In this document: positions 1 through 25,187 of the stretch, piece after piece | How positions within the stretch are numbered: position 1 is the stretch's first letter | Layout of the letters: each line of letters starts with the position of its first letter | From: Myxococcota bacterium | Lineage (GTDB): Bacteria > Myxococcota_A > UBA796 > GCA-2862545 | DNA: 27,696 bases | Direction of reading: 5' to 3' | Assembly: GCA_039208735.1 (NCBI GenBank) | Contig: JBCCQY010000122.1 | Coordinates: 1-27,696 of the forward strand | Program-made: the position numbers and the translations under genes | The notes under the pieces: generated by a model | Told to the model about the DNA's origin: nothing | Seen by the model: only the letters and a program-made list of their open reading frames with translations | The model's database searches: none

Positions 1-561
1 GAACAGTCCAACATGGCGAACCTGATCTCGGGCGAGGAGATGGACGCGTTTTCGGACCACGATCACACCCGCGGTGATGGAGAGGGGCGCTTCTCAACCG
101 AAGATCACCACCGCGATCGGGTCGAGGTGGGCTCCCTTCATCAACGACGGACCCCCGAACTCGCAGTCCGCTACAGCTCCCCCGTGATCTCCGAAGCCGA
201 GGCCACCACGAAAGTGCATGTGACCAATGAAGTCCTTGGGGCCGTGGTTCGTGCATTCGATGATTCCGAGGGGGCTGGCCGAGGCCGCGCCCTCGTTCAA
301 CTTCTTGTGACCGGAGCCCCCATCCGGTTTTCTGCCCTCCTTCGCGACCTGGTGGTTGACGAAACGGGCGCTCTGCCCGAGCGGCAGGTCCTGCACAACC
401 TCTTTGGCCGCCCGGCCGGAGAGCACCGCCAGCTCCTCAACGGCGGTCTCGTCGATCTCATCGATCGTGCGCTTTCTTCAGCTGCCGACGAGCTTCCTGA
501 AGAGCACCTCGACGAAGTCCTGACACAAGTTGCAGGTTACCGACAGCGCCTTGGCGTCTGA
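1..561 (+). CDS. Hypothetical protein, probably 5'-truncated by the window edge (acidic linker plus C-terminal helical domain)
   Basis: Frame is open from base 1 (gaa cag tcc aac ATG...) to TGA 559-561. Protein-like composition, no recognisable motif. Confidence 0.7.
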   Translation, partial: EQSNMANLISGEEMDAFSDHDHTRGDGEGRFSTEDHHRDRVEVGSLHQRRTPELAVRYSSPVISEAEATTKVHVTNEVLGAVVRAFDDSEGAGRGRALVQLLVTGAPIRFSALLRDLVVDETGALPERQVLHNLFGRPAGEHRQLLNGGLVDLIDRALSSAADELPEEHLDEVLTQVAGYRQRLGV

Positions 562-585: not shown

Positions 586-1521
586 ATGCTCCTGACCCTA
601 CTTTCGAGCCTCGTCCGTGCCGAACCCGGGGCCCTCGAAGCAGATGCTCCCGTTCCCGAGTTACCCCCTCGGGAAATTGTCGATCTGGGAGCGATTCCTC
701 CCGACATCGCTCAGATCGCACGCTCGGTGGGCCACCTTCCGCTGCCCGACCGGATGGCCCGCATTTCGGAAGCCATGCTCGGCAAACCCTACGTGAGCGA
801 CCCGCTCGGTGAGGGCCAGGGCATCGATCCTGACCCCATCGCCCGCTACGACGCATTCGACTGCCTGACGTTCACCGAAGAGGTCCTTGCCCTGTCCCTC
901 GCTGGCGATCCGGTGCAGGCTGCACAAATCCGCCGTGACCTGCGGTATGGGCCCGAGAACACCATCGCCTACGTGAACCGCCGGCACTTCATGGAGCTGC
1001 AGTGGATTCCCGGGGTGGTGCGGGACGGATGGCTCCGCAACACAACAGCCGAGTACGGGGATGTGATCCTTCTCGAAAAGGAAATCACGGACCAGACTTG
1101 GAACACGTGGCGTCCGCGCAAGCGGTTTGCCCACAAAGACGATGAGTTGCCGAAAGGCATGATGCGTCTTGAGGTGCTTCCGCTCGCCACCGCCCGCGAA
1201 GTCGCCGGCAAAATCCGGCCGGGAAGCGTCATCCTCACCGTTCGGTCGGACCGCCCGACGGTGCCCATCTGGGTCACCCACGTCAGCTTGGTGGTCCCCG
1301 GGCCCAATGGCAAGGCGGTGCTCCGTCACGCCACCAAAATCGGGAAGGGCGGCACTCGCGACCACGGCGTCGATTGGTACCTCGGACACCTCGAGTCCTA
1401 CACCAATTGGAAAGTGGTGGGCATTTCGATCCTGGAGCCCGTTGAACCGCTGGTACGCAGCGTGCCGAATCCAGCGACCGACGCCTCGGCCTCGACGGAA
1501 GGTGCCGACCGCACGCCGTAG
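586..1521 (+). CDS. DUF1460 / NlpC-P60-superfamily N-acetylmuramoyl-L-alanine amidase-like secreted protein
   Basis: LGKPY...FDCLTFTEEVLAL (catalytic Cys), RRHFM, VTHV (catalytic His) and LRHA motifs typical of DUF1460. AGGA SD upstream. The start is bounded by the in-frame TGA at 559-561. Confidence 0.85.
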   Translation: MLLTLLSSLVRAEPGALEADAPVPELPPREIVDLGAIPPDIAQIARSVGHLPLPDRMARISEAMLGKPYVSDPLGEGQGIDPDPIARYDAFDCLTFTEEVLALSLAGDPVQAAQIRRDLRYGPENTIAYVNRRHFMELQWIPGVVRDGWLRNTTAEYGDVILLEKEITDQTWNTWRPRKRFAHKDDELPKGMMRLEVLPLATAREVAGKIRPGSVILTVRSDRPTVPIWVTHVSLVVPGPNGKAVLRHATKIGKGGTRDHGVDWYLGHLESYTNWKVVGISILEPVEPLVRSVPNPATDASASTEGADRTP

Positions 1522-1607
1522 CGCGCAGGCAAGGCTTCGGGTACATTGCTGGGCGGACAATCGCGCGAAAGCGTTGGATGTCTGCACTGTCAAGGAGTCG
1601 GCGCGTG

Positions 1608-2480
1608 ATGAATCGCTACGGTGGGGCCGGAGTGGCCGGAGCCCTATTAGCGCTTGTGACAGGATGTTCCACCGGTCTCGAGGTTGCGACCGACCTCGGC
1701 ACCGTTCCCTTAGATACGGGCGTCGACAATCCGACCGCCCCAACCAACTTTGGTCCTGGCAACAATTCCAATCCCGATGGCAACCAAGCCCCCGTGGCGG
1801 ATGCCGGAGAGGACTTTTCGGCCATCGTGTCGAACGAGGTGTTTCTCGACGGCAGCAATTCGTTCGATCCAGATGGCGACTCTCTGACCTACACCTGGAT
1901 CCTTCAGCAACTCCCCCCGGGCTCGTCGAGCTTTCTCATCAACGAGACCAGGGTCGAATCTAGCTTTTTCATCGATCGCGCCGGTTCTTATCTCGTCGAA
2001 CTCGTGGTGAGCGACGGATTCGAAAGTTCACGTGACACCGTCGAAATCATGGCCGAGGTCCTCAACTCCGGACCTGTGGCCGTCGCGGGACCCGACCAAA
2101 ACGTCCGCATCGGCGAGCAGGTGTTGTTGTCGGGCGGCGACAGCTACGACCCCGACGAAGAACCCATCACGTTCGAATGGGAGTTGGTGTCGGTGCCTCC
2201 GGGCAGCTCGGCATCGTTGTCGACCCCCTCCTCGTCGGTCACCACCTTCATTGCCGACCGCACCGGCACCTACACCGCTGAGCTCGTGGTGACCGATGGC
2301 AATGACTTTTCGGCCCCCGATTCGGTCACGATCTTTGCGTCCGAAACTGGCGGTAGCGGCGGCGCCAATGGATGCCTGTCGTGCCAGGGCACCACGCTCA
2401 CGAGCGGTGGCGTGGCGGGTGGGTTTGGCCTGGCCGGCCTGCCCCTTTTGCTCCTGTGGGCGACTCGCCGACGTCCCTAG
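1608..2480 (+). CDS. Lipoprotein with two PKD/K319L-like Ig-fold repeats and a MYXO-CTERM-like C-terminal sorting signal
   Basis: AAGGAG SD at 1592-1597 favours GTG1605 or ATG1608 over 1578. Lipobox LVTG-C. Two repeats of PVAxAGxD...LxGxxSxDPD...YxxELVVxDG. Tail GCLSC...GLAGLPLLLLWATRRRP. Confidence 0.85.
   Translation: MNRYGGAGVAGALLALVTGCSTGLEVATDLGTVPLDTGVDNPTAPTNFGPGNNSNPDGNQAPVADAGEDFSAIVSNEVFLDGSNSFDPDGDSLTYTWILQQLPPGSSSFLINETRVESSFFIDRAGSYLVELVVSDGFESSRDTVEIMAEVLNSGPVAVAGPDQNVRIGEQVLLSGGDSYDPDEEPITFEWELVSVPPGSSASLSTPSSSVTTFIADRTGTYTAELVVTDGNDFSAPDSVTIFASETGGSGGANGCLSCQGTTLTSGGVAGGFGLAGLPLLLLWATRRRP
1782..2333 (+). repeat. Two tandem ~90-aa PKD-like protein repeats (about 1782-2048 and 2064-2333)
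   Basis: NQAPVADAGEDF...SFDPDGD...PPGSS...DRAGSY..ELVVSDG aligns with NSGPVAVAGPDQ...SYDPDEE...PPGSS...DRTGTY..ELVVTDG. Confidence 0.85.
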
Positions 2481-4369
2481 CCTGCAGCGTCTTGCAGCCA
2501 CGTGCGAGCGGCATCGGTCAGTGCCGTTAGCGCGCTGTCGACGCCTGCGCGTCCTGCATCATCCAGGCCCGAGCGCCCCTGAACCTCAGCGTAGATCTTG
2601 AGCTTCGGCTCGGTGCCTGAAGGACGTAGCAGCACCCGAGCCCCCACATCATGCTCGCCGCCGACAAGATCGTAGCAGAGCATGTTGCGTGACGCCCGGT
2701 CCGACGCGCTCTTGAACGGGCCAAAGCGGCCGGTCTCATTCCAATAGTCGCGTGAGCCCTGAACCGACCGTCCTGCAAACACATCGGGCGGGGACTGCCG
2801 CAGCCGTTCGAGCAGGGCTCGCATGGCCCCTGCGCCCTGGGCTCCCTCGAACCGAAGCGCGACCTGGCCGTTCACGACGTAGCCATGGGTGTCTTGCAGC
2901 CTACGCAAGACATCGATGAGCGTCTTCCCTTGGGCCTTGGCCTGGGCTCCCCGCACGGCCAGAGCCACGGCCCCACCCGCGGCGTCCTTGTCCCGGATGC
3001 GATCCGTGACCAAGACCCCGTGGGATTCCTCGCCCGCCGCGGCAAAGCGAACGCTTCCCGACGCGATGCCCTGCCACTCACCGGTGTCTTCGAGCGTACC
3101 AAGGCCGTCTGCGACGTATTTGAACCCGACCAGCAGGTTGTCGACGACCGCCGCCCCATGCGATTCAGCAACGGCACGCACCAAGCGCGACGTCACTTCG
3201 GTGACGATGACGAGGGGCCGATGTCCTGCGGCGGCCAACGAACGACAAGTCTGGTCGGCCACCAGGACCGCGATGTCATTGCCCGACAGATGGACGAAGC
3301 CCCCTTCGTGCGCCACCTCACACCCCAATCGGTCCGCGTCGGGGTCGGTGCCAAACACGAGATCCTGACCTTGCGCGGCGGCCAACGCGTGGGCCATGGC
3401 CTCAGGCTTCTCCGGGTTGGCCACGCCTTCGGGGACGGTGGGAAACGCCCCATCGGGGGTCGCCTGCCCCTCGTGAATGGCCACCGTGAAGCCGGCCGCA
3501 GTCAAGGCCTCATGGACCAGTCCCACCCCATGCAGCGGGGTGTAATAGGCCTTGAGGGCACGCAAGGCCCCTTCATCGACCGCCTCAGGCCCGCGCCCCG
3601 CTTCAGCCACCGTCTGGATGTAGGCGGCATGGGTTGCGTCATCGAGCCAGCGCAAATGGGGTTGCGCGGCCTCCCACGACAGGCTTTCGACCTTCTGGAC
3701 GGCGTTCACGATGTCGAGCAAGGCCTGATCTTGAGGAGCGACCAGCTGCCCCCCCTTTGCGTCATAGACCTTGATGCCGTTGTCGTCGGGGGGATTGTGG
3801 GACGCCGAGAGGTTGAGCCCGCCCTGCGCTCCGAGGGTTCGAATCGAAAACGAAAGTTCGGGCGTCGACAAGTATCGGGCGACGCCCCGTGCCAGCAACC
3901 ACACCGTGATGCCATTGGCGGCGTAGATGCGGGCTGCATGCTCCGCGAGATCCCGCGAAGAAACATCCTGCAACACCCCCGCATGACCGCCGTACCGCCC
4001 CGCGACATCGACAAACCGGCGCACATCATAGGCAATGACCACCGATAGATCGGCGTCGCCGTGCTGCTTCCGCAGCCAGTCCGCGTGACCCTGCACCGAA
4101 GTGCCTACGGTATGGGGATTGAGGCGGTTGGGGCCCACCCCCACACGACCGCGACGTCCTCCGGTGCCAAAGGGAAGCACCTGGCGAAACGCATCGGTCA
4201 GTTCGTCGAACTCCCCGCGCGTCACCAGCGTCTCGATGAGAGGTCGGTAGTCTGCGTAGCGGTCGTCGGTCCACCAGGTCTGCAAATGGTCCAACGCACG
4301 GGCCCGAATGTCATCGGGTACGTCCACACGTTGCAGTCCGGCCTTCGCACGGTCGATCACGTCCGTCAT
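2477..4369 (-). CDS. Phosphoglucomutase/phosphomannomutase family alpha-D-phosphohexomutase
   Basis: FGTGGRRG, catalytic SASHNP, metal loop DPDADR, sugar loop GEESHG and RPSGTEPKLKIY. The ATG overlaps the stop of the upstream gene (4366-4369). Confidence 0.93.
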   Translation of the reverse strand: MTDVIDRAKAGLQRVDVPDDIRARALDHLQTWWTDDRYADYRPLIETLVTRGEFDELTDAFRQVLPFGTGGRRGRVGVGPNRLNPHTVGTSVQGHADWLRKQHGDADLSVVIAYDVRRFVDVAGRYGGHAGVLQDVSSRDLAEHAARIYAANGITVWLLARGVARYLSTPELSFSIRTLGAQGGLNLSASHNPPDDNGIKVYDAKGGQLVAPQDQALLDIVNAVQKVESLSWEAAQPHLRWLDDATHAAYIQTVAEAGRGPEAVDEGALRALKAYYTPLHGVGLVHEALTAAGFTVAIHEGQATPDGAFPTVPEGVANPEKPEAMAHALAAAQGQDLVFGTDPDADRLGCEVAHEGGFVHLSGNDIAVLVADQTCRSLAAAGHRPLVIVTEVTSRLVRAVAESHGAAVVDNLLVGFKYVADGLGTLEDTGEWQGIASGSVRFAAAGEESHGVLVTDRIRDKDAAGGAVALAVRGAQAKAQGKTLIDVLRRLQDTHGYVVNGQVALRFEGAQGAGAMRALLERLRQSPPDVFAGRSVQGSRDYWNETGRFGPFKSASDRASRNMLCYDLVGGEHDVGARVLLRPSGTEPKLKIYAEVQGRSGLDDAGRAGVDSALTALTDAARTWLQDAAG

Positions 4370-5253
4370 GGCGTCGCCTTCTCCTCGGCTTCGAGCGGGG
4401 AATAAGGGCGCAAGACCGAGCTGTCGGTCCAGGCTCCCTCCAGTGCGATGCGGTAACGACGGATCCGCGAGTGCGCTGTTGCATGCTCGGCTCGCTGGAC
4501 CGCCTCAAGGGCTCGTGCGGTACGACCATGGATCTCGTGGAAGACCGCAAGATCGTGATGGGCTCGTCCGTGAACGGCCGCCGGCGCCGAGGGGTCATTC
4601 ACGACCGTTTGCCAGGTCGCGGCGGCGGCATCCCAATGGCCCTCCCGGACCGCCTGCGAGGCGAGCCTCAACCTGGGATCCCCACGTTTGAACCACGGGC
4701 GCCTGACGCGTCCCCTCGAGCGCACGAACCGTCGAGCAAGTACCTGACCGCTGGCGACCCTTAGCTCCTCAAGCAGACCCTCTGGGAGCCCGGCTCGGGC
4801 ACGCAACGCCTCGGTCGCCCCTGCGGTTCGAGCTCCCGCCACGGTCACCGGGCCAACGGACTCCACGACCTGGCCGTCACATCGCTCCAATTTCCACGTC
4901 AGGTGAACGCGCCCCTGCCAGGTCAGGCTCACCCACGGATCCGCGATGGCCTCTTGCCGAACCTCGCCAGAGGGCAACACGAACCGCATGGGCTTGGTTG
5001 AGACCGCACTTTCGAGTTCCCGCTCTTCGGAGCGCACCCCGAGCAAACGCAAGATCCCACCGTCGGGGCCACAGCGTTCGCTAAGCCACCCGGCCACCGC
5101 AAGCGTCTCTCGGAGGGACCTTGCCACGTCGTCGGTTCCGGGCGAGGCCTCGACCACGAGCGTCCGCAGACGCTCGGAGACCACATCCGGCCGCGTTGAC
5201 CATTCCACCTCAACCCGAGGGACGCACGCGAGCGTCCCTACGAGCCAGATCAC
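4366..5253 (-). CDS. Hypothetical lipoprotein with C-terminal TPR-like helices
   Basis: GTG at 5253 overlaps the TGA of the upstream gene (GTGA, 5250-5253), giving MIWLVGTLA-C. Alternative TTG start at 5277. The C-terminal segment WDAAAATW...AHHDLAVFHEIHG...AL is TPR-like. Confidence 0.7.
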   Translation of the reverse strand: MIWLVGTLACVPRVEVEWSTRPDVVSERLRTLVVEASPGTDDVARSLRETLAVAGWLSERCGPDGGILRLLGVRSEERELESAVSTKPMRFVLPSGEVRQEAIADPWVSLTWQGRVHLTWKLERCDGQVVESVGPVTVAGARTAGATEALRARAGLPEGLLEELRVASGQVLARRFVRSRGRVRRPWFKRGDPRLRLASQAVREGHWDAAAATWQTVVNDPSAPAAVHGRAHHDLAVFHEIHGRTARALEAVQRAEHATAHSRIRRYRIALEGAWTDSSVLRPYSPLEAEEKATP

Positions 5254-5900
5254 CAGTCGCCGTCGCAGGTTCCACAATCAACGTCAACAAGCCGCCAGCG
5301 CCCCTTGCCCTCTTCGTCAGAGAACTCGATGGTGGCGGCGCCGTTGCCCCGCGCCACCAACCAGGTGCCCAACACGGGATTCGGCGAATCGACCGAGCTG
5401 CTGGCGATCGCAAACGAGCCACACTCGTTCCAGCCTTGCGCGAAGTTGGTGTCGCAAGGCACAAGCCCCCCGAACGTCGACGTCCAGGTACGGCCCGCCG
5501 ACACCGTCTCGACCATCTCGTCGAGCTGCATGGTCGGCCTCGCAACCTGCAAAGGAGGCGCGAAGGTCGTGTTTCCGTCGGGCGAGATGACGGTGTGAAT
5601 GCGCACCCCGAGACCCGGCGTGCTCGACCAGCGAATGCGGTAGCGCTCGAAGTCTTCGCACTTTGGGTCGTTGTTGACGCAAACTTCGTTGTAGGACACC
5701 GTGTAGACCGCGATCGAATCTTCGATATCGGGCTTGCCTTCGAGTTCGGCCACGAGCTTGTAGGGCAGCGTGCGGTCGCTACTGACGTATTCCCACACCC
5801 GCCCCTGCTCGAACGGGAACATGTTCCAGACCGTGACCCCGTCAAAGACGACCGTCGAGTCACAGCCGAAGAGGAACGGGGCGATCAGGATGGGATTCAT
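5250..5900 (-). CDS. Hypothetical beta-rich, Cys-containing lipoprotein
   Basis: GGAGG SD just upstream of ATG5900. MNPILIAPFLFG-C lipobox, then FPFEQGRVWEY. Six further Cys, including a terminal CGTC. Confidence 0.7.
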   Translation of the reverse strand: MNPILIAPFLFGCDSTVVFDGVTVWNMFPFEQGRVWEYVSSDRTLPYKLVAELEGKPDIEDSIAVYTVSYNEVCVNNDPKCEDFERYRIRWSSTPGLGVRIHTVISPDGNTTFAPPLQVARPTMQLDEMVETVSAGRTWTSTFGGLVPCDTNFAQGWNECGSFAIASSSVDSPNPVLGTWLVARGNGAATIEFSDEEGKGRWRLVDVDCGTCDGDW

Positions 5901-6036
5901 CGAGCCTCCAGACCGCCGGTGTAGCACCTCGACGGGGCCCTTGGCAACGGCAACGTGAAGGTCACGGGGCGTTTTCACCCCCATCGACAGATCGCGACAC
6001 GTTCCTCCGGGAGCCTCTGTCGGCGCACCGGGCACA

Positions 6037-7767
6037 TCAGGGAAGATTCACCCGCCAAACCTGGGATTTGCTACCCCGCATGTACTGACCCTCGAGCACC
6101 TGACCGCTGAGCTTTCCACTAAAGACAAGGCGCGAACTAGGCGAACGAAGAAGGAGTTCCCGACTCGTCGGGTCAAAGGTTCCCTCAAGCGCTTCGACCC
6201 GCGGGGACCCTAAGCCCACCAGCGGCAGGAACACGGCGTCTGCAACAACGCGACCTCCGTTGGAAACGGTCACGCGAAGCTCAAAGGGTCTCCCATCGGC
6301 TTCGCCCTCGTACGTTCCGATGGGCAACGACGGTCCTTCGGGAACCGGGGCCGGCCCTTCGACGTCCTGTGGCGCGGTCTCCTCCGCAGGAACGGCCACG
6401 CGCATGGGACTCGGCTCACTCCCCTCTTCCTCGGCAGCTTCTTCCGGGGTTTCCGTCCCCTCTTCGGGAGCTAGCACCTCGATGAGCTTGGGTTCAACGG
6501 TGGGGGAGGGCTTAGGGGCCGCGGTCGCCTCCGGAAACGCAAGCGGAGGATGCGCGGGAGCGGGAATGATGGCGGGCGAACCCTTTTGCGCTTCAACCTC
6601 GGCCTTCACAGGGGGAAGCGGTTTGGGCGAGGGAGGAGGTTCGACCACCGTGACCACGTTGGCCTTGGCGGCTTTGGCGGCCTCGCGCGCCTTGCGAGAC
6701 TCGAGGACGGGCTGGGTGAGCAGCGCCGTGACGACAACGGAGGCCAGCACGGAGCCCAGGACCGCCAAGACCGCAACGGGGCCTGCGGTACGCGGGGGGT
6801 CAGAAGCAGGCTCTGTAAATGGCGGGGTGGTTTCCTGGCTTCGGACCATGGCATCGGCAGAAGGATCCGAGGGGTAGGTGCTCGGGTCGAGCGCCAAAGG
6901 CACCGGCACGAGGTCGGGCGCCGCCGACAACGACGGATGGGACTCGATCCCGAGTGCCTTGGCAAACGCGCGTGCATCATCGAATCGAGCGTCGCGTTCA
7001 GGTTCCAGCGCCTTGGAGATCGCGTTCCAAACCTCGACGGAAACATCCTCCAGGGGTGGAGGACGGCGATCGATGGTGGCGGTCAGCTCGATTTCGGAGC
7101 CGTCCGGTGGTGCGTACGCCCGTCGGCCCGCAATCATCTCGTAGAGAACAGACCCCAGCGCGAACACATCGGTGCGCACGTCGGCCGATGCGGAATTACG
7201 CACTTGCTCGGGCGGCATATACCCAGGCGTCCCCATGGAAATGCCCGTTCGGGTGTTGGGACCGAGCCCATCCTCGACCACCTTAGCTAGCCCAAAATCC
7301 GCCACCTTGGGCACCCACCCTCCGGGCGCTCGGGCAAGCAAGACATTGGCCGGCTTGAGGTCTCGGTGGAGCACCCCTGCATCGTGAGCGTGAGCCACCG
7401 CGGCGAGCACTGGCGCAAAGAGACCCAGGGCATCGGGAACCGACAGCGCACCGTGATGCTCGAGGAACTCTTCGAGCGAGGGTCCTTCGATGAACTCGAG
7501 CAGCAGGCCCACGCGCCTTTCGATCCGAACCACATCGGTCACCCGGACGATGTGGGGATGGGTGAGCTGCGCCTGAATGCGCCCTTCGAGGAGCAGCCGC
7601 TCCGTCAGGCTCTTCCGATTCCACGTGAGCAATTTGAGCGCATGTACAGAGCCGAGTTCGAGATGTCGAACGCGGTACACCTCCGCCAACCCGCCCAAGC
7701 CCACCAAGGCTTCGACGGAGTAGCGGTCGCCCACCACCATACCGAGATCGAGGCTTGCCTCATCCAT
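6037..7767 (-). CDS. Membrane-anchored Hanks-type Ser/Thr protein kinase (kinase, TM, Pro/Glu-rich linker, small beta domain)
   Basis: GLGGLAEVY, ALK, HRDLKPAN, DFGLAK, GTPGYMPPEQ and DVFALG. TM segment VAVLAVLGSVLASVVVTALL. ATG7767 overlaps the end of the upstream gene at 7760. Confidence 0.93.
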   Translation of the reverse strand: MDEASLDLGMVVGDRYSVEALVGLGGLAEVYRVRHLELGSVHALKLLTWNRKSLTERLLLEGRIQAQLTHPHIVRVTDVVRIERRVGLLLEFIEGPSLEEFLEHHGALSVPDALGLFAPVLAAVAHAHDAGVLHRDLKPANVLLARAPGGWVPKVADFGLAKVVEDGLGPNTRTGISMGTPGYMPPEQVRNSASADVRTDVFALGSVLYEMIAGRRAYAPPDGSEIELTATIDRRPPPLEDVSVEVWNAISKALEPERDARFDDARAFAKALGIESHPSLSAAPDLVPVPLALDPSTYPSDPSADAMVRSQETTPPFTEPASDPPRTAGPVAVLAVLGSVLASVVVTALLTQPVLESRKAREAAKAAKANVVTVVEPPPSPKPLPPVKAEVEAQKGSPAIIPAPAHPPLAFPEATAAPKPSPTVEPKLIEVLAPEEGTETPEEAAEEEGSEPSPMRVAVPAEETAPQDVEGPAPVPEGPSLPIGTYEGEADGRPFELRVTVSNGGRVVADAVFLPLVGLGSPRVEALEGTFDPTSRELLLRSPSSRLVFSGKLSGQVLEGQYMRGSKSQVWRVNLP

Positions 7768-8680
7768 CGTCACGCCGCCGTTGCACGAGGGTCTGTAGGC
7801 CTGCGCTAAACGAGAGCACATCCGAGGGATTGTTGACGGCTGCGATCGTCCGCAAGATGGTGAAGGACGCGGACAGCGCCCTCGGGCCACGGACGACCGC
7901 GGTTGCTCCCACCCGCATGTTCAAGACACGCAAGACGCCAAGCCGGTCTCGGTCCGTCAGGTCGACCTCATCCCAGTCCAGACCATTGGGACGCCAGAGC
8001 AGGGTTGCTACCGGACCAACGACCACTCGCCGTGAACCAAACACCGCCTCGGCATTGGCGCCGAGTTCAGCCCCCGGCACCGAACCCGCAAACCCCGGGA
8101 AGTTGCGGGTCGTGGGAAACCGGTAGCGCCCTGTGACATCGAGGAATCCGCTCCAGTACCCCTGGTCCCCAACCCGTCCGGTACGCCCTGCGGTGATGAA
8201 TCCGCCGAGGTCGAGCGCCCCTTCCCCCGCGTTGGTGATGCGCTGACGCGTGGCCAGGGTGAAGTCGCCGGCACGAATCTCGGGGCCGATGGCCAGGCTC
8301 AACGGTGCACCGAACAATTCATCGAGGAGGAGCAGCTTGCCGCGGAACTCCAACACCCCCACCGTCGTCGTGGTCTGGCAGGCGCCCAATCCGAGAATCT
8401 CACAAACCGCGGTGTCCGTCCGATTGGCCTGAATCCGCCACCACGGCAGGATGCCCTGCAGCTCGAAGTGGCGCGTGATGCCAAGGGTGACAATGCCCTT
8501 GAGCCCAAAGGACGAAAGCCCCTCCCCCACGTCGATGACGTCGCGCTCGCCACCCACCTGTATGGCCAGGCGCTCGAGCCGTTGGGACTCGGCGCCCACG
8601 TAAATTGAGGCATTGCCCTCGCCGACCACCCACGGACCGGACCCCGCGAGGGCACTGGAGGCTGTGAAAATGAGCCACAT
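7760..8680 (-). CDS. Hypothetical exported protein, probable outer-membrane beta-barrel
   Basis: GGAGAG SD 5 nt before ATG8680. Signal peptide ending ALA-GSGPW. Many alternating amphipathic beta segments (FELQGILPW, LDVTGRYRF, LSFSAGLQ). Confidence 0.65.
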   Translation of the reverse strand: MWLIFTASSALAGSGPWVVGEGNASIYVGAESQRLERLAIQVGGERDVIDVGEGLSSFGLKGIVTLGITRHFELQGILPWWRIQANRTDTAVCEILGLGACQTTTTVGVLEFRGKLLLLDELFGAPLSLAIGPEIRAGDFTLATRQRITNAGEGALDLGGFITAGRTGRVGDQGYWSGFLDVTGRYRFPTTRNFPGFAGSVPGAELGANAEAVFGSRRVVVGPVATLLWRPNGLDWDEVDLTDRDRLGVLRVLNMRVGATAVVRGPRALSASFTILRTIAAVNNPSDVLSFSAGLQTLVQRRRDDG

Positions 8681-8851
8681 ACGGTCTCTCCATCGACGTC
8701 GCGGGTAGGTGGATTGAACACGCCGTGCGATCGGATCGCAACCGTGGGCACGGACGTCCGACGGTTCAGGACATCCCGACACGAAGCCTGCGCGATCGTT
8801 GCCCGAACGACACTGTAGTCATGGTTACGCCTAGTCTATCGGAGGATCCGC

Positions 8852-18542: not shown

Positions 18543-19610
18543 TCAACGATAGAGAAACCGACTGCGCAACGGAGAATCGCTCGGTACCCAGCGCTCGAGC
18601 TTCGGCCCCAGAACCACCGGTTGGGTCGCGAGGTCGCTCGGCGTGCGACTGCCGGAAAGCAAGCAGGCTACGCGAAGCTCCTCGATGAGTTCCTCCCCTG
18701 CCGCTTTCACACCGTCGTAGCCACCTTCGTTGTACGCCATCAGAAACGGTCGGGCGAGCCCCCCCAATCGGGCGCCAAGCGCAACGGCGCGGGCCACATC
18801 GAGGCCGTGCTTGACTCCCCCGGTGGCGACCACGTTCAGCCCCAAGCCCGAAAGCTGGGCCACGCTGGCCGCGGTGGGCACGCCCCAATCCCAGAACAGC
18901 TCGCCAAGGCGACGGGTTCGCGCCCGGGCTCGAAGGGTTTCCACCCCGACCCACGATGTCCCGCCGGCACCCGACACATCGACGTTGGCCACCCCAAGAT
19001 CGATCAGTCGCTTCGCGGTTCGTCGCGACAGGCCGCACCCCGTCTCTTTTACGACGACAGGAACGGGGAGTTCCTTGACGTAGCGTTCGATCGTAGGCAG
19101 CCCGTCGGTAAAATCATCGTCGCCCTCGGGCTGGATGACCTCCATCGCCGGATTGAGGTGAATGGCCAGCGCATCGCACCCCACGTCGGCGACCATCGCC
19201 GCGACCTGGCTCGTCGACGCCGCGCGGGCCTGCACGAGCCCCAAGTTGCCCAACACAAGGGCGTTGGGGGCGACTTCGCGCACTTCGTAGCCCGTCTTGA
19301 TGCCCGCCTCGAGCAAAGGTCGCATCGACCCAAACCCAAAGCCCAACCCCAATTCATCCGCCACTTGGGCCAGGGTCTGGTTCACTGCTTCAGCGCGCTC
19401 TGTGCCCCCCGTCATCGCAGCAATCATCACCGGGGCGGACAGTGTCTTGCCGAGGAAGGTCGTGGTGAGATCCACGTCGGCCACCGACATTTCGGGCAGG
19501 GCTTCATGGACGAGCGAGACCTCTTCGAACAACGTGGTCTTGCCCTGGAAGGCCACTTCGTCGGTAGCACAGAGGTCCAGGTGCTCAGCTTTGCGCTGTG
19601 AGATGCTCAT
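18543..19610 (-). CDS. fni: Type 2 (FMN-dependent) isopentenyl-diphosphate delta-isomerase
   Basis: RKAEHL, HEALPE, AMTGG, IHLN..ME.IQPEGD, VKETGCG, DVSGAGGTSW, WGVPT and ATGG. GGAG SD before ATG19610. Confidence 0.96.
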   Translation of the reverse strand: MSISQRKAEHLDLCATDEVAFQGKTTLFEEVSLVHEALPEMSVADVDLTTTFLGKTLSAPVMIAAMTGGTERAEAVNQTLAQVADELGLGFGFGSMRPLLEAGIKTGYEVREVAPNALVLGNLGLVQARAASTSQVAAMVADVGCDALAIHLNPAMEVIQPEGDDDFTDGLPTIERYVKELPVPVVVKETGCGLSRRTAKRLIDLGVANVDVSGAGGTSWVGVETLRARARTRRLGELFWDWGVPTAASVAQLSGLGLNVVATGGVKHGLDVARAVALGARLGGLARPFLMAYNEGGYDGVKAAGEELIEELRVACLLSGSRTPSDLATQPVVLGPKLERWVPSDSPLRSRFLYR

Positions 19611-19680
19611 GGGTTCTCCGAGGAGCAACGCGACAAGACGTCACGAGGCCCGATGAGCACGGCGTATCAATCCCACCGTC

Positions 19681-20538
19681 CTATGCGTCCGCAAAGGGAG
19701 CCACCGCACGGCCTCGCAGATCGTCGAGCGCCCCCCGGTCGTCGACCCCTTCCTGCGCCTTCAGGAACGCATCCAGCTCCTTAGGAACGTCCCCTTCGGC
19801 GAACAGCCGTCGGGCATGGACCGCAGTTCGGCCTGGAAGGGCTTGGATCGCGCGAAGGCAGGGCAGCCGTGGCGGGGGCAACGAGCCGGGCAGCTGGCGT
19901 GCGGCTCCGTAGTACGCGGTTTGAAGCGCAACCCACACCGCTCGTCGACGTCCGAGGTGCCCCACATCAAAGGGCAAAGGGGCAGGCGCGGGCGACGCCA
20001 ACGCTTCAAAGAGTCGCCCAATCCACGCCGCGGGGCCCGCACAGACCTGTTCCTCACCCACCAACCACCGCTCGCGGTCGAGCAGCTCAAAAAAGGCATC
20101 GGCGGTGCCCAAGGCCTCGAGTCGACAATCGGCGACGCCGTCCTCCGACAGCAACATCGCGGTCAGCACCTGTGAAAACCCAAGCGACGTCTTGTAGATG
20201 GCCGACCATCGACGAGGCACCGGAACCCCGGGCTGTGTCCTGGCCCACTCGCCCGGGAGCGCGGTGCCCGCGAGGGCCGTTTGCCACGCCCCCGCGACGG
20301 TTCCCGGTCGCAACGCACACGCGGCCATGGCCGAGACGGTGACAGGGACGTCCCCCCACACCTGCGACAGCTGCCGGAGCGCGCTGCGGTTCATGGGCCG
20401 CCCCCGTCGGGCATCGGCGTAGGGACAAGACCCAACCTCGGTCGGCACCGACGCGTAGGCGGATGACCCGAGTTCTCCTACCGGACGACCATCGACATCG
20501 ATCAGGTCGCTACTGTCATCATGGTCCGGCGTAAGCAC
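19681..20538 (-). CDS. Hypothetical protein inside the mevalonate cluster
   Basis: 285-aa ORF that fills the gap. GTG start 4 nt after the upstream stop. Motif-like segments DVDGRPVGE, CPYADARRGRPMN and VCAGP. Confidence 0.65.
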   Translation of the reverse strand: MLTPDHDDSSDLIDVDGRPVGELGSSAYASVPTEVGSCPYADARRGRPMNRSALRQLSQVWGDVPVTVSAMAACALRPGTVAGAWQTALAGTALPGEWARTQPGVPVPRRWSAIYKTSLGFSQVLTAMLLSEDGVADCRLEALGTADAFFELLDRERWLVGEEQVCAGPAAWIGRLFEALASPAPAPLPFDVGHLGRRRAVWVALQTAYYGAARQLPGSLPPPRLPCLRAIQALPGRTAVHARRLFAEGDVPKELDAFLKAQEGVDDRGALDDLRGRAVAPFADA

Positions 20539-20542
20539 CGAA

Positions 20543-21070
20543 TCAGCTGGCCTTCATCCCGAAGCGCACCGTCTCGTCGAACTCGATGAAATGGCCTTGT
20601 GCATCGATGCCCCCCGTGAGTCGAACCGGCAGGTCAGGCACGCCATCAGGCCATTCGAACGACGAGGGGCCGACCTCCAGGGACTGACCCGCGAGCAACT
20701 GGCTGTACTGCGGAATCGGTCCCGCGCGGGTGATGAACTGTCGTCGATCGCCCTCGAAAACGGCGGGCAACTCGAATCGATGGCCATCGATCGTGATGGC
20801 AGCTCCCACGTAAGGTCCCGGTCGGGTGCCTCGCGCCGATACAAACTCGATCGTGCCGCGCCCACGGTTTGTCACGGTGGTGAAGACTTCGAGGCGACGT
20901 CCCTGACGCTGCACCCGAAAGCGCGTGTCGATCTTGGGTGGCCCCGACGGCTCGCGAACGGGCGGAGCCGCTTGGGGAACGTCCAGTTCCGGGATGCCAG
21001 CACGGGCGGTCGAGCTTCCGGTCATCGCAAGAATCATAGAGCCGAAGGTGAATTCGCGGCGACTGGCCAT
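20543..21070 (-). CDS. Hypothetical Tat-exported beta-rich protein
   Basis: GAGGAGG SD. MA-SRREF twin-arginine motif, hydrophobic stretch, ARA cleavage site. Confidence 0.72.
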   Translation of the reverse strand: MASRREFTFGSMILAMTGSSTARAGIPELDVPQAAPPVREPSGPPKIDTRFRVQRQGRRLEVFTTVTNRGRGTIEFVSARGTRPGPYVGAAITIDGHRFELPAVFEGDRRQFITRAGPIPQYSQLLAGQSLEVGPSSFEWPDGVPDLPVRLTGGIDAQGHFIEFDETVRFGMKAS

Positions 21071-21132
21071 GCGGACCTCCTCGGGACGTCGGCGCCCCTC
21101 CCCCTTTCAACGTACGACGAGACGCGGAGCTT

Positions 21133-22020
21133 TCACTCCATCGAAGAATCGAGAAGAGAGCCCGCCGCGCCGTTGGCCGTGGATACCTCGATGGGCAGAA
21201 AGCCCGCCGATCGCGCGGCGCGTTCGTACGCCTCTCGGGCTCCCGGATCGTCGAAGATCGCAACGACAATGTCGCCGCCGCCCGCTCCCGAAGGCTTCGC
21301 AGCTCCTCCGTGGTCGGAGGCGAGCCGAACGAGGTCTTCGATCTGCGGCGTCCAATACGCGATGCCCGCCTGATCAGCCATCGCTCGTAAGGCCTCGGCG
21401 CCAGCTCGGATCGCGTCGATCGGCGTAATCGCAAACGCCTCCACGATGCGCTGGGTTTCATCCACAAAGGCCCGCCGCACCGATTCGTTGAGCGCGAGGT
21501 AGCGCTGAACGCGGGGGCCCGTAGTGGCAGACTGGCCGGAAAAGACCACCGCACACTCCGGTCCGCCCCCCAGTGGCCGTGCTTGACCCTCGGCAAACGA
21601 AAGCCAGCCCCCGTGCGCCGACGCGGCCACGTCGATCCCAGAGCCACTGCCCTGCACCGCGTGGTGAACCGCAAAGGCCGCGGCGAACACTTCGTCAGCG
21701 ACCACGGGGCGACCCGCCTGCCGCGCCGCCGCCACCACCGCGGCAACCGTCGCCGCAGCGGAGCCTCCCAATCCGACCTTCTCGCTCGATTCGACCGGCC
21801 GCCAGTCCGAGAACGTGTAGTGAGCCGCGGGCGCCTCCACCGCTTCAAGGGCTCGCGCTACAAACCGGTCATCCCCGGTTGGCGTCGTCCATTGCACGGT
21901 CGGCGACGCGGTGACCGTGCAGCGCACGCCTCGGTCGACGGCGCGAACGATGGCCTGGGCCCCGTCGACAACTGCGTACTCGCCCAAGATGACCACCTTG
22001 CCCGGCGCATCAACGATCAT
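21133..22020 (-). CDS. Phosphomevalonate kinase (GHMP family)
   Basis: APGKVVILGEYAVVDG, KVGLGGSAA, GSGIDVAAS and KPSGAGGGD. ATG22020 overlaps the end of mvaD. Position in the cluster supports the call. Confidence 0.87.
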   Translation of the reverse strand: MIVDAPGKVVILGEYAVVDGAQAIVRAVDRGVRCTVTASPTVQWTTPTGDDRFVARALEAVEAPAAHYTFSDWRPVESSEKVGLGGSAAATVAAVVAAARQAGRPVVADEVFAAAFAVHHAVQGSGSGIDVAASAHGGWLSFAEGQARPLGGGPECAVVFSGQSATTGPRVQRYLALNESVRRAFVDETQRIVEAFAITPIDAIRAGAEALRAMADQAGIAYWTPQIEDLVRLASDHGGAAKPSGAGGGDIVVAIFDDPGAREAYERAARSAGFLPIEVSTANGAAGSLLDSSME

Positions 22021-22969
22021 CGGCCACCACGTGAGCCCCCTCGCCAGGACCATGCACGTAGACCTCGATCGCATAGGGCCTCAGGGCTTCGGCGACCCGA
22101 TCCGCATCCGCCGCTTCGCAGAGCACCTTGACCTGAGGCCCGGCGTCCATCGTGGCCCACGCGCCAACCCCCTTGGCTCGGAGCCCAAACACGGCGTGCA
22201 ACACCGCGACCGTGGCGGGCTGCCAGTACAGCAACGGAGGCGTGGCCGTCTGCATCGTCGCGTGCATCGCAAACGTCGATTGCTCCATGATCGTGCCGAG
22301 ACGTTCGAGGTCCCGGGCCTCAATGGCCTCAATGGCCCCTTGAACCGCCCCCGGCCCTTGCTCAACCCAGGCGGGCCAAAGGGGCGACGTGGTGCGACTC
22401 CGCTCCATCCCTGCGGTGCTGCCGACGGCCTTGGGACCATCGGCCACCACGGCAACCACCATTCGGACATCCCAATGGATAGGCGATGCAAGTGGGCGCG
22501 CGTGATCGTCGAGTCCATCCGCGCGGTCGCCGAGGTCCCACGCGACGAATCCCCCAAAGATCGACCGACAGGCCGAACCCGACCCCTGCCGCGCAAGCAC
22601 CGAAAGCGAGGTCTCGTCCAGCGTTTGACCGGCCGCCCGAGACGCGGCGAGCGCCAATGCGGCAAACCCCGACGCAGACGAGGCCAACCCCGCCCCGGTG
22701 GGGAAGTTGTTGGTGGTCACGACTTCACAGGGAGGACGATCGGCATCGATTCGGTCCAGAAAGGCCAACGCCCGGGGGTCTGACCGTACTTCCCCGTCAA
22801 ACACGACCCGATCCGACGGTGCCCCCCATGTCACCGTCGTCGTCGTGACGAAGCCATCCAGGGTCAGCGAAACGCTTGGAACGGCCGGTAGGTTCAACGC
22901 AAGGTCGCGTTTGCCCCAGTACTTGACGAGCGCGATGTTGGGGTGCGCGCGTGCCGTCACCTTGCCCAC
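22010..22969 (-). CDS. mvaD: Diphosphomevalonate decarboxylase
   Basis: HPNIALVKYWGKRD, NNFPTGAGLASSASG, GSGSACRS and TMDAGP. Confidence 0.96.
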   Translation of the reverse strand: MGKVTARAHPNIALVKYWGKRDLALNLPAVPSVSLTLDGFVTTTTVTWGAPSDRVVFDGEVRSDPRALAFLDRIDADRPPCEVVTTNNFPTGAGLASSASGFAALALAASRAAGQTLDETSLSVLARQGSGSACRSIFGGFVAWDLGDRADGLDDHARPLASPIHWDVRMVVAVVADGPKAVGSTAGMERSRTTSPLWPAWVEQGPGAVQGAIEAIEARDLERLGTIMEQSTFAMHATMQTATPPLLYWQPATVAVLHAVFGLRAKGVGAWATMDAGPQVKVLCEAADADRVAEALRPYAIEVYVHGPGEGAHVVADDR

Positions 22970-23847
22970 GGTCGACTCCCAAAGGCCTGTACGCCACGTG
23001 CAGCAGCCTTGGCCAACACCGGCGCAGGGTCCTCCACCAACGCAATCACGATGCCGCCCCCTCCCGCTCCCGAGAGCTTCGCGCCATAGGCCCCCGCCTC
23101 CATGGCCAGCGCCACCAGCTCGTCGAGTTCAGGGGTGCTCACACCAATCTCCCGCAAGTGCGCATGATTTTCGGTGAGCAGCTCGCCCAACTGCCGAGGA
23201 TCATGGATGGCGGTTCGCGCTTCTCCAACCAAGGCTCCAATCCGGTCGAGCACAGGGTCGATGCCGGGTCGGCGACCGGCCACCCCCGCCACGAGCTGCT
23301 TGGTGTCGCCAGCGCGCCCCGAATCGAGCACCACCAGGGACCATGGCCCGATGGCCACCGGCTCGCGTTGGGCCCTGACCGTTCCGTCCGGCCCCTCAGT
23401 CCGCTGAAACCACAGGCAACCGCCCTCGCATGACACTGCAACGTCCACCCCAGAGGGGTTGCCGTGGAATTCCCTTTCGAGGGGCATGGCGCGGTCGTAG
23501 GCCTGCTGGGGAGTGAGCGGAGGGCCCTCCGCCACGTCCGACATGGCATGGGCCAACGCAACGGCGAGCGCGGCCGATGAGCCCATCCCTCGACCCACCG
23601 GAAGCGTCGTTGTGATCTGAACCCCGTAGCCTTCGGCTCCGATCACCCGTCCGATTGCGTCCACCACGCGGTCGTCGCCAAGCGGTGAATCGACCGAGGT
23701 CGGGCCCGGGCGGACCGTCACATCCACCATGGTTGTGCGATCGACCGCCAACGCGAGGGCGGGATGGCCATAGACCACCGCGTGCTCTCCACAGAGCAGC
23801 ACCTTGCCGTGGCCCTCACCTCGACCCCTCCGAAGCGAGGCGCTCAC
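22957..23847 (-). CDS. mvk: Mevalonate kinase
   Basis: HGKVLLCGEHAVVYG, PVGRGMGSSAA, HGNPSGVD and KLSGAGGGG. GTGA overlap with the HMG-CoA reductase stop. Confidence 0.94.
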   Translation of the reverse strand: MSASLRRGRGEGHGKVLLCGEHAVVYGHPALALAVDRTTMVDVTVRPGPTSVDSPLGDDRVVDAIGRVIGAEGYGVQITTTLPVGRGMGSSAALAVALAHAMSDVAEGPPLTPQQAYDRAMPLEREFHGNPSGVDVAVSCEGGCLWFQRTEGPDGTVRAQREPVAIGPWSLVVLDSGRAGDTKQLVAGVAGRRPGIDPVLDRIGALVGEARTAIHDPRQLGELLTENHAHLREIGVSTPELDELVALAMEAGAYGAKLSGAGGGGIVIALVEDPAPVLAKAAARGVQAFGSRPWAR

Positions 23848-25127
23848 TTCGCACGAAGCCGTTCGATCACATCCTTGGCGTGATCGACGGAGAAGTCGCG
23901 ATGTCGAACGAGTTCGACCGTCACGTGTCCGACCTCGGCCGGCGTCGCCCCGGCCGTCGCTGCAACCGTTCGCGCGTGCATGCGCATGTGTCCGTGCTGA
24001 ATGCCCTCGGTCGCCAATGCCTTGAGTGCGCCGAGGTTCTGGGCCAGCCCCACGGCAGAGGCGATCGCAGCGAGTTCACCGGCGGTCGTCACCCCAAGCA
24101 GCGCCAGGTTCGCCTGAACCGTAGGATGGACCTTGATTGGACCCCCGACAGTACCAAACTGCATCGGCACCTCGATGGTCCCCACGAGGTGGTCCTCTTC
24201 ATCGAGTTCCCATCGGGTCAGGGGCCGGTATTGGCCGGAACGAGCCGCATAGGCATGCGCCCCCGCTTCGATCGCCCGCCAGTCGTTGCCAGTGGCGATG
24301 GCAACGGCGTCGATCCCGTTCATGATGCCTTTGTTGTGCGTGGTCGCCCGGTAGGGATCCACCCAGGCGAACCGCCACGCGGCGGCAATGTGCTGCGCCA
24401 CTTCAAGACCGTCTGTGGCGGTACGACCGAGGTGTTCTGGCGCCAACCGGACCTTAGCGCGAGAGCAACGTCGGTCAGCGAGGTTGGAGAGGATGCGCAG
24501 CCCCACGCGCTCGCCGGTGACGTCCGCCACGATCGGAGCAAGGTGCTCACACAGCGTGTTCACCATGTTCGCGCCCATGGCGTCGACCACATCGAGGATG
24601 ACATGCAGCACAATCATGTCTTCGGAGTCGCGTCCACGCTCCTCGTAGCGCAAACGCCGCACCTCGAAATCGACAAGGCCGCCACCGCGTTCCTCGAGGC
24701 GAGGGTGGACGCCCTGGGCCTCGTGTCGAAGTCGCGGCAACGCCGCCTCAAGCGCGGCCGCGGCCCGGTCCGCCTCCTGGACCGCGGCGAGTTGGATCTG
24801 ACCGATCATGTGGGAGGGGTCGGAAGACGCCTGGAACCCACCGGACGCCCGAGCCAGCTTCGCCATGTGCGAGACCGCGGCCACGACCGACGGCTCTTCG
24901 ACGACCATCGGCACCAGGCGATCGTGGTCGTTGATGCGGAAGTTGACGGCAACCGCATTGGGGAGGCTGAACGTAGACACCACGTTCTCGACCATAAGGT
25001 CGGCTGCCTCGAGCGATAGCCCACTCCGAAACGCCGCGGCATCGGGAGCATCGGGGGCCACTTCCGTAAGACGGGCGAGTCGCGCGTCGGGGTCGAGCTT
25101 GTAAAAGCCTGGAATTCGAGAACTCAC
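23844..25127 (-). CDS. mvaA: Class II hydroxymethylglutaryl-CoA reductase
   Basis: SRIPGFYKL, ENVV, EEPSVVAA, DAMGANM, THNKGIMNG, GTVGG and EGIQHGHMRMH. AAGGA SD favours GTG25127 over ATG25184. Confidence 0.96.
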   Translation of the reverse strand: MSSRIPGFYKLDPDARLARLTEVAPDAPDAAAFRSGLSLEAADLMVENVVSTFSLPNAVAVNFRINDHDRLVPMVVEEPSVVAAVSHMAKLARASGGFQASSDPSHMIGQIQLAAVQEADRAAAALEAALPRLRHEAQGVHPRLEERGGGLVDFEVRRLRYEERGRDSEDMIVLHVILDVVDAMGANMVNTLCEHLAPIVADVTGERVGLRILSNLADRRCSRAKVRLAPEHLGRTATDGLEVAQHIAAAWRFAWVDPYRATTHNKGIMNGIDAVAIATGNDWRAIEAGAHAYAARSGQYRPLTRWELDEEDHLVGTIEVPMQFGTVGGPIKVHPTVQANLALLGVTTAGELAAIASAVGLAQNLGALKALATEGIQHGHMRMHARTVAATAGATPAEVGHVTVELVRHRDFSVDHAKDVIERLRAK

Positions 25128-25187
25128 CGCGGTCCTTCGGGGTCGGTCGTGGTCAGGCGTATCGATTGTGGGGCCGCGATGCACGGG

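Follow-up and report, generated by a model that had tools for sequence, protein, structure and literature searches.

Very short, uncharged predicted signal peptides in an order of Myxococcota and their possible relation to changes in SecY and SecA

We analysed a stretch of DNA of 27,696 nucleotides (the window) from contig C122 (JBCCQY010000122.1) of the 9.4 Mb, 64% GC assembly of a Myxococcota bacterium (GCA_039208735.1). Four of its genes begin with predicted signal peptides (leaders) of only 9 to 12 residues that lack a basic n-region, and these leaders, the genes that carry them and the export machinery that would accept them are the subject of this work. The features concerned are listed below, where Sec is the general secretory pathway, SPase is signal peptidase and SD is a Shine-Dalgarno motif.

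559..561, + strand: stop codon TGA of the preceding gene, in the frame of the 586 gene, limiting any N-terminal extension to 8 codons
586..621, + strand: predicted Sec/SPase I leader of 12 residues, MLLTLLSSLVRA before EP, without a basic n-region
586..1521, + strand: AmiA-like amidase gene (PF07313, DUF1460; Pfam E 1e-17), the cargo of the 586 leader
1608..2480, + strand: predicted lipoprotein gene with a PKD domain, whose leader has 19 residues and an Arg, a counter-example to the short leaders
4366..5253, − strand: DUF6340/TPR predicted lipoprotein gene (PF19867, E 7e-13)
5227..5253, − strand: predicted lipoprotein leader of 9 residues, MIWLVGTLA before C (Cys at 5224-5226), whose GTG overlaps the upstream TGA
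5250..5900, − strand: gene of a Cys-rich predicted lipoprotein, no Pfam match, with DUF3108-like look-alikes (a lead only)
5865..5900, − strand: predicted lipoprotein leader of 12 residues, MNPILIAPFLFG before C, with SD GGAGG at 5905-5909
7760..8680, − strand: probable outer-membrane barrel gene, no Pfam match, in a look-alike cluster with PF13557 on 41% of its members (a lead only)
8645..8680, − strand: predicted Sec/SPase I leader of 12 residues, MWLIFTASSALA before GS, with SD GGAGAG at 8686-8691

The four N-termini lie where a preliminary description of this DNA had placed them, with the stop, overlap and SD features that it had given. The amidase gene starts with ATG and its leader holds a single Arg, at −2, outside any n-region. 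The GTG of the 5253 gene overlaps the TGA of the 5250-5900 gene, while GGAGG and GGAGAG stand 4 and 5 nt upstream of the starts at 5900 and 8680, respectively. The open reading frame (ORF) list had also been said to over-extend three of the four genes, and it does so, to 5277, 6035 and 8782. The coding-score gene finder used for starts, which is blind to signal features, chose 586, 5900 and 8680, but 5277 instead of 5253. No twin-arginine motif was found in any of the four leaders, and the twin-arginine translocation (Tat) route was rejected on this ground.

A longer start at TTG5277 had been named as the finding that would overturn the 5253 leader if orthologues shared it. L033, the most closely related locus, retains the GTGA overlap, and at its counterpart of TTG5277 there is no start codon; this locus has a further-upstream GTG where the window has a stop, and the overlap start is the only shared one. 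TTG5277 was therefore rejected and the short start stands. The 586 amidase family was found in 56 of the 61 genomes searched. Its leaders in 29 related loci are mostly short and uncharged, some being longer with Arg, and most of 120 homologues in public gene calls have the same short N-termini (both read by eye); the amidase gene of many relatives is coupled to the preceding gene by a start-stop overlap. The gene directly upstream in the window (13-561) has no Pfam match. Leaders of the 5900 family range among orthologues from 9 uncharged residues to 18 with Arg, and the 8680 orthologue in L033 has a leader that is also of 12 uncharged residues.

Signals were called genome-wide with purpose-made rules and fake-start controls. 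Among the 1,245 genes with a coupled start, i.e. one overlapping the stop of the preceding gene, 124 carry a lipobox-type leader (counted when the Cys falls by position 26), with a median of 12 residues. At most 12 residues were found in 67 of the 124, compared with 1, 4 and 0 at fake starts (n = 1,255, 1,234 and 1,199), and 50 of these 67 lack Lys and Arg. The lipobox rule bars charges within the 6 residues preceding the Cys, and the count was therefore redone without this filter: a first Cys at positions 8-13 after Gly, Ala or Ser occurred in 91 of the 1,245 genes versus 15-16 at fake starts, 59 of the 91 leaders being free of Lys and Arg (background 531/1,245). At the unfiltered positions, Lys and Arg were absent from 46 of the 48 leaders of nine residues and from 45 of the 53 of ten (background shares 0.76 and 0.66), and there was no loss of charge at 11-12 residues (27/59 and 24/75 free of both).

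The distance from an in-frame stop to the Cys was at most 12 codons in 16 of 7,021 frames and at most 14 in 35, the shortest being 7. An SD motif preceded 40-71% of the starts lying 8-16 codons ahead of the Cys versus 9% of internal starts. When the coupled or the most upstream SD-supported start was taken, a rule that favours longer starts at the SD genes, 289 of 802 leaders had at most 12 residues. Two classes of leader emerged, one uncharged, Trp-rich and of 7-11 residues, the other Arg-bearing and of 11-17 residues with a peak at 12-16; the median outside the order is 21. Trp makes up 8.7% of short leaders compared with 2.2% of the last 10 residues of long ones, and a small residue at position 2 is rarer in short leaders (0.12 versus 0.46 at coupled starts, 0.29 versus 0.48 at SD starts). 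Leu is the commonest −3 residue of the lipobox and the Cys is invariant.

In the same way, AxA leaders of at most 13 residues made up 167 of the 322 found at 5,183 starts, compared with 35-38 at about 5,100 fake starts; as the rule takes the first AxA, some of these leaders may come out 1-3 residues too short. Lys and Arg are absent from 160 of the 167, and the AxA precedes polar mature starts, including homologue N-termini. The strict Tat pattern was seen in 3 separate long leaders among the same 5,183 starts. In the window, the gene at 20543-21070 (− strand), whose product has no Pfam match, carries a twin-arginine leader of ordinary length, and Tat leaders are seemingly not shortened. The stretch 18543-25184 of the window holds what we take, from its motifs, to be a mevalonate-pathway-like cluster (IPP isomerase, two kinases, decarboxylase and HMG-CoA reductase).

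TonB receptors and TolC-family proteins must cross the inner membrane. Leaders of at most 13 residues were read by eye on 4 of 22 TonB receptors, with 9 more at 14-17 residues without N-terminal Lys or Arg, and on 6 of 15 TolC-family genes; the cargo, judged by family, is therefore exported. OmpA-family proteins are also among the SPase I-type cargo. In all 23 sampled genomes of the class (read by eye) the BamD leader is of the AxA type and shows no clear lipobox, while the lipobox Cys is kept in 7 of 7 genomes elsewhere in the phylum; BamD may thus be a soluble periplasmic protein in this class, as its predicted leader suggests.

The relatives that carry titles are metagenome bins, often labelled Myxococcota, Myxococcales or Deltaproteobacteria and several otherwise, and the order (UBA796) is here the families f1 to f7 by kinship labels. 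With the same pipeline applied to sampled regions, 35 of the 123 leaders from the order and 1 of the 37 from outside had at most 12 residues (Fisher test, p 5e-4, which is overstated because kin are not independent), and the single outside case looks doubtful. Leaders free of Lys and Arg were 0 of 37 outside the order, and AxA leaders of at most 13 residues were 14 of 53 inside versus 0 of 10 outside. This outside control consists of 5 genomes, about 0.8 Mb and 37 leaders, with no named Myxococcus among them, and the samples for the range are small. Each of the 7 families that form the order had sampled genomes with short leaders, but not every genome had them, the share per genome going from 8/9 (G037) to 0/7 (G049), 0/6 (G060) and 0/9 (G051). 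The trait is real, genome-wide and uneven across the order. The proposal that this lineage uses minimal leaders thus holds genome-wide, on proteins that must be exported, in all 7 families and hardly outside them; as a description of the lineage it needs amending, since short and Arg-bearing leaders are found side by side and stand in for each other between orthologues, and those of BamA and BamD are mostly longer.

The genome encodes SecA, SecY, SecD, SecF, YajC, YidC, Ffh, FtsY, TatC, LepB and Lol proteins. With E. coli queries, SecB, SecM, TatA and TatB gave no tblastn match; SecE and SecG were not searched for. Loss of the signal recognition particle (SRP) was rejected on the presence of Ffh and FtsY, and a retained formyl group through deformylase loss on that of two def genes. 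There are 4 Lgt-family, 2 LspA, 2 Lnt and 3-4 LepB-family genes, and a division of labour between short and long leaders among the Lgt, LspA and LepB copies is possible. The two best Lgt copies lack the His103 of E. coli.

We then compared SecY between the order and its relatives. Position 187, which belongs to the isoleucine ring of the pore according to passages of PMC2171872, is Ala in 40, Ser in 30 and Thr in 1 of the 71 matched among 86 order genomes, and Ile in all 22 matched of 24 genomes of the class outside the order. Elsewhere in the phylum a small residue was counted by eye in 4 of 111 matched genomes (of 114); Ser or Thr stands there in G251, G223, G215 and G243, all outside the class. 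G144 has two SecY matches (C32 and C138), one of the order type with Ala187 and one of the outside type with Ile187, which would reflect either contamination of the bin or a second gene copy. When 9 SecY proteins of the order were aligned with 8 from outside it, 187 was one of 3 of the 117 outgroup-invariant columns that were lost in the order, and the only non-conservative change among the three. Passages of PMC3164448 state that prl mutations mostly map to the ring, gate and plug, and the change from I187 to Ala, Ser or Thr is a substitution in the pore ring.

Further changes found across the order are Gly123 to Leu, Met or Ala, Phe192 to Thr or Ser, Thr168 to Ala or Ser, Cys329 to Ala, Thr or Ser, and Glu110 to Gln. 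Those at 123 and 192 could, from the residues involved, be a size swap. Positions 64, 37 and 405 were rejected as order-specific, as they differ from E. coli outside the order too.

In SecA, position 372 is Tyr in 114, Phe in 1 and Leu or Val in none of 127 order genomes (12 unmatched), and outside the order Leu or Val in 18 and Tyr in none of 26 (8 unmatched). It is the only one of 407 conserved columns that separates the order in this way. We take Leu372 to line the signal groove. The position adjoins the Prl site Ala373 in the SecA Stem, where, in passages of bioRxiv 10.1101/2021.08.31.458331, bulky residues give Prl phenotypes. The known SecA Prl sites 134, 373, 484 and 507 are unchanged in the order, and 488 nearly so. 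Loss of acidic groove residues, at positions that we presume to be correct, was rejected as an explanation, 288-294 being missing in nearly all of 30 genomes inside and outside the order. All 8 genomes of family f37 (G190-G197) lacked a match to either SecA pattern, which implies another sequence at the SecA Stem there. The suggestion that the export machinery itself is adapted thus has backing in the sequences, from SecY Ile187 and less strongly from SecA Leu372, in the form of a correlation on one branch.

The reading that we favour, with a probability of roughly 0.55, is that the short N-termini are minimal Sec signals that consist of a hydrophobic core plus a cleavage box, without a basic n-region, and act on a SecY channel that the Ile187 change likely made less strict in its proofreading. 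Its parts differ in strength. That these are real short N-termini on exported proteins we regard as nearly certain, and their passage by the Sec route with ordinary processing, as the leaders suggest, is probable. The permissive channel as the enabling cause is put forward tentatively, at slightly less than even odds. The broadest form of this reading, which we hold with still less conviction, is that the whole order would possess a naturally signal-permissive Sec system, with a gasket made smaller by the change of Ile187 to Ala or Ser and a SecA with Tyr372, exporting and lipidating hundreds of proteins that start with Met and 6-9 uncharged residues, not enough for a membrane-spanning helix, with Lgt, LspA and LepB working on a new substrate geometry.

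Under the favoured reading, SecA would take the chain after or late in translation with the help of signals in the mature domain; mature domains hold targeting signals of their own according to passages of PMC5412566. Bypass of SRP is proposed because 7-10 residues are likely too little for it. The retained Met would supply, through its amino group, the sole charge at the N-terminus, and the additional Trp might anchor the leader to the membrane surface. With a thinner isoleucine ring, the opening barrier would then fall in a prlA-like manner, in line with the prl model in passages of PMC3164448, and Tyr372 of SecA, beside Ala373, may help this opening. Finally, AxA leaders would be cut by LepB after the AxA, and lipobox leaders would be lipidated at the Cys by Lgt and cleaved in front of it by LspA.

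Several points weigh against this reading. The SecA tree recovers the order as one clade, so that the SecY and SecA changes are each one event, and single events on one branch cannot show cause. The SecY change is fixed across the order, yet the share of short leaders varies widely, and 187 is not alone, 9 of 225 conserved SecY columns being changed in the order. The ring residues 86, 191, 278 and 408, which have strong effects in E. coli, are unchanged in the order, and Thr192 is also found outside it. In passages of PMC13537251 on a cell-free E. coli library, which holds neither I187A nor I187S, I187M slightly increases transport (log2 +0.47, p 0.054), and F192S gives +0.28 versus +2.4 for I191S. 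Nor is Tyr or Phe at SecA 372 confined to the order: of 150 diverse SecA proteins examined, 140 had the motif, and 15 of these carry one of the two residues. Not all exported proteins have short leaders: in the window the lipoprotein at 16646 has 15 residues with Arg and that at 1608 an ordinary-looking 19, while BamA and BamD leaders in the order mostly have 14-28 residues, that of BamA in this genome with Arg. A helix of 7 residues is too short to span the bilayer, and the standard picture of Lgt and LspA substrates in passages of PMC8048626 assumes a bilayer-spanning helix. Lastly, the cleavage, lipidation and location of these proteins are themselves predictions.

The main rival, which we consider rather unlikely, is that these are true Sec signals accepted by an ordinary translocon, the n-region only tuning efficiency and having been lost by drift, with tight operons helping, and the SecY and SecA changes being unrelated marks of the lineage. 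In passages of PMC9360617 the basic end improves efficiency and the apolar core is essential, and the targeting signals within mature domains (PMC5412566) would serve this explanation as well. Orthologues swap freely between 9-residue uncharged leaders and 14-18-residue leaders with Arg, several order genomes have the SecY change and no short leader in the sample, and uncharged leaders of at most 11 residues make up 50 of 137 at coupled starts versus 122 of 665 at SD starts, where, as noted, the rule favours longer starts. However, passages of PMC5963308 place E. coli signal peptides at a median of 22 residues, about twice the length of the short leaders, with none below 15-16, and none of the 37 leaders outside the order is free of Lys and Arg, so something seems to forbid such leaders elsewhere; and a nearly invariant ring residue was changed on the same branch.

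A second explanation, clearly less probable, is that export takes place but that the stub is processed by another route or left on, targeting being by SRP and YidC or by the mature domain and the leader remaining as an anchor that is uncut or no more than lipidated. In its favour, the genome has Ffh, FtsY and YidC, SecB has no tblastn match, 7 residues are short for a membrane-spanning LspA substrate, and there may be a specialised pair among the 4 Lgt-family and 2 LspA genes. The precision of the leader ends speaks against it, the unfiltered Cys after Gly, Ala or Ser at 8-13 being about six times commoner than at fake starts; moreover, AxA stands before polar mature starts, and outer-membrane barrels generally need their leader removed. 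That the short leaders are an artefact of wrong starts (non-AUG codons upstream, read-through or frameshift fusions) or belong to cytoplasmic proteins is hardly credible and already largely refuted, for although the seemingly fixed 5253 start has an alternative TTG eight codons upstream, in-frame stops limit 16 leaders to at most 12 codons for any choice of start codon, 4,294 called genes end in TGA (by which a changed genetic code or stop read-through was rejected), SD motifs peak at short starts, public gene calls agree for most of the 120 homologues of the 586 protein and the cargo includes outer-membrane barrels.

Our literature searches, with subscription journals and preprint supplements outside their scope, found no description of such leaders, and in the literature searched the trait is apparently undescribed. 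Textbooks describe bacterial signal peptides as having a basic n-region and about 20 residues, and several hundred natural leaders here have neither. They offer a ready library for the minimal needs of a signal and for what the SecY ring checks, and they bear on how Lgt and LspA engage a leader unable to span the bilayer and on the engineering of secretion tags. For annotation, simple ORF calls over-extend such genes, and the exported proteome of the lineage may therefore be undercounted.

Compared with Sec/SPase II lipoprotein signals, as set out in passages of PMC8048626 and PMC9360617, the lipobox leaders share a hydrophobic stretch or core and a lipobox ending in an invariant Cys, and Lgt, LspA, Lnt and Lol genes are present. 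In contrast, the short class is without a positively charged n-region, Trp-rich and of 7-11 residues in total, below the about 15 residues of a membrane-spanning signal. The AxA leaders share with Sec/SPase I signals a hydrophobic core, small −3 and −1 residues, a polar mature start and TonB, TolC and OmpA-family cargo, but 160 of the 322 predicted leaders have 8-13 residues without the positively charged n-region, being free of Lys and Arg. The leaders thus resemble Sec/SPase I and II signals but depart from them in charge and length, and are a variant, not canonical members, of these classes. The machinery resembles that of the E. coli prlA and prlD mutants in passages of PMC3164448, PMC7530735 and bioRxiv 10.1101/2021.08.31.458331: an Ile of the pore ring is replaced by a small residue, a change stands beside SecA Ala373, and the leaders used here would likely count as defective in a normal cell. 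In the passages on prl mutants no prl allele at I187 was found. Unlike in these mutants, the change is here natural, fixed across an order and at I187 rather than I191, I278 or I408, and the permissive phenotype is a predicted one.

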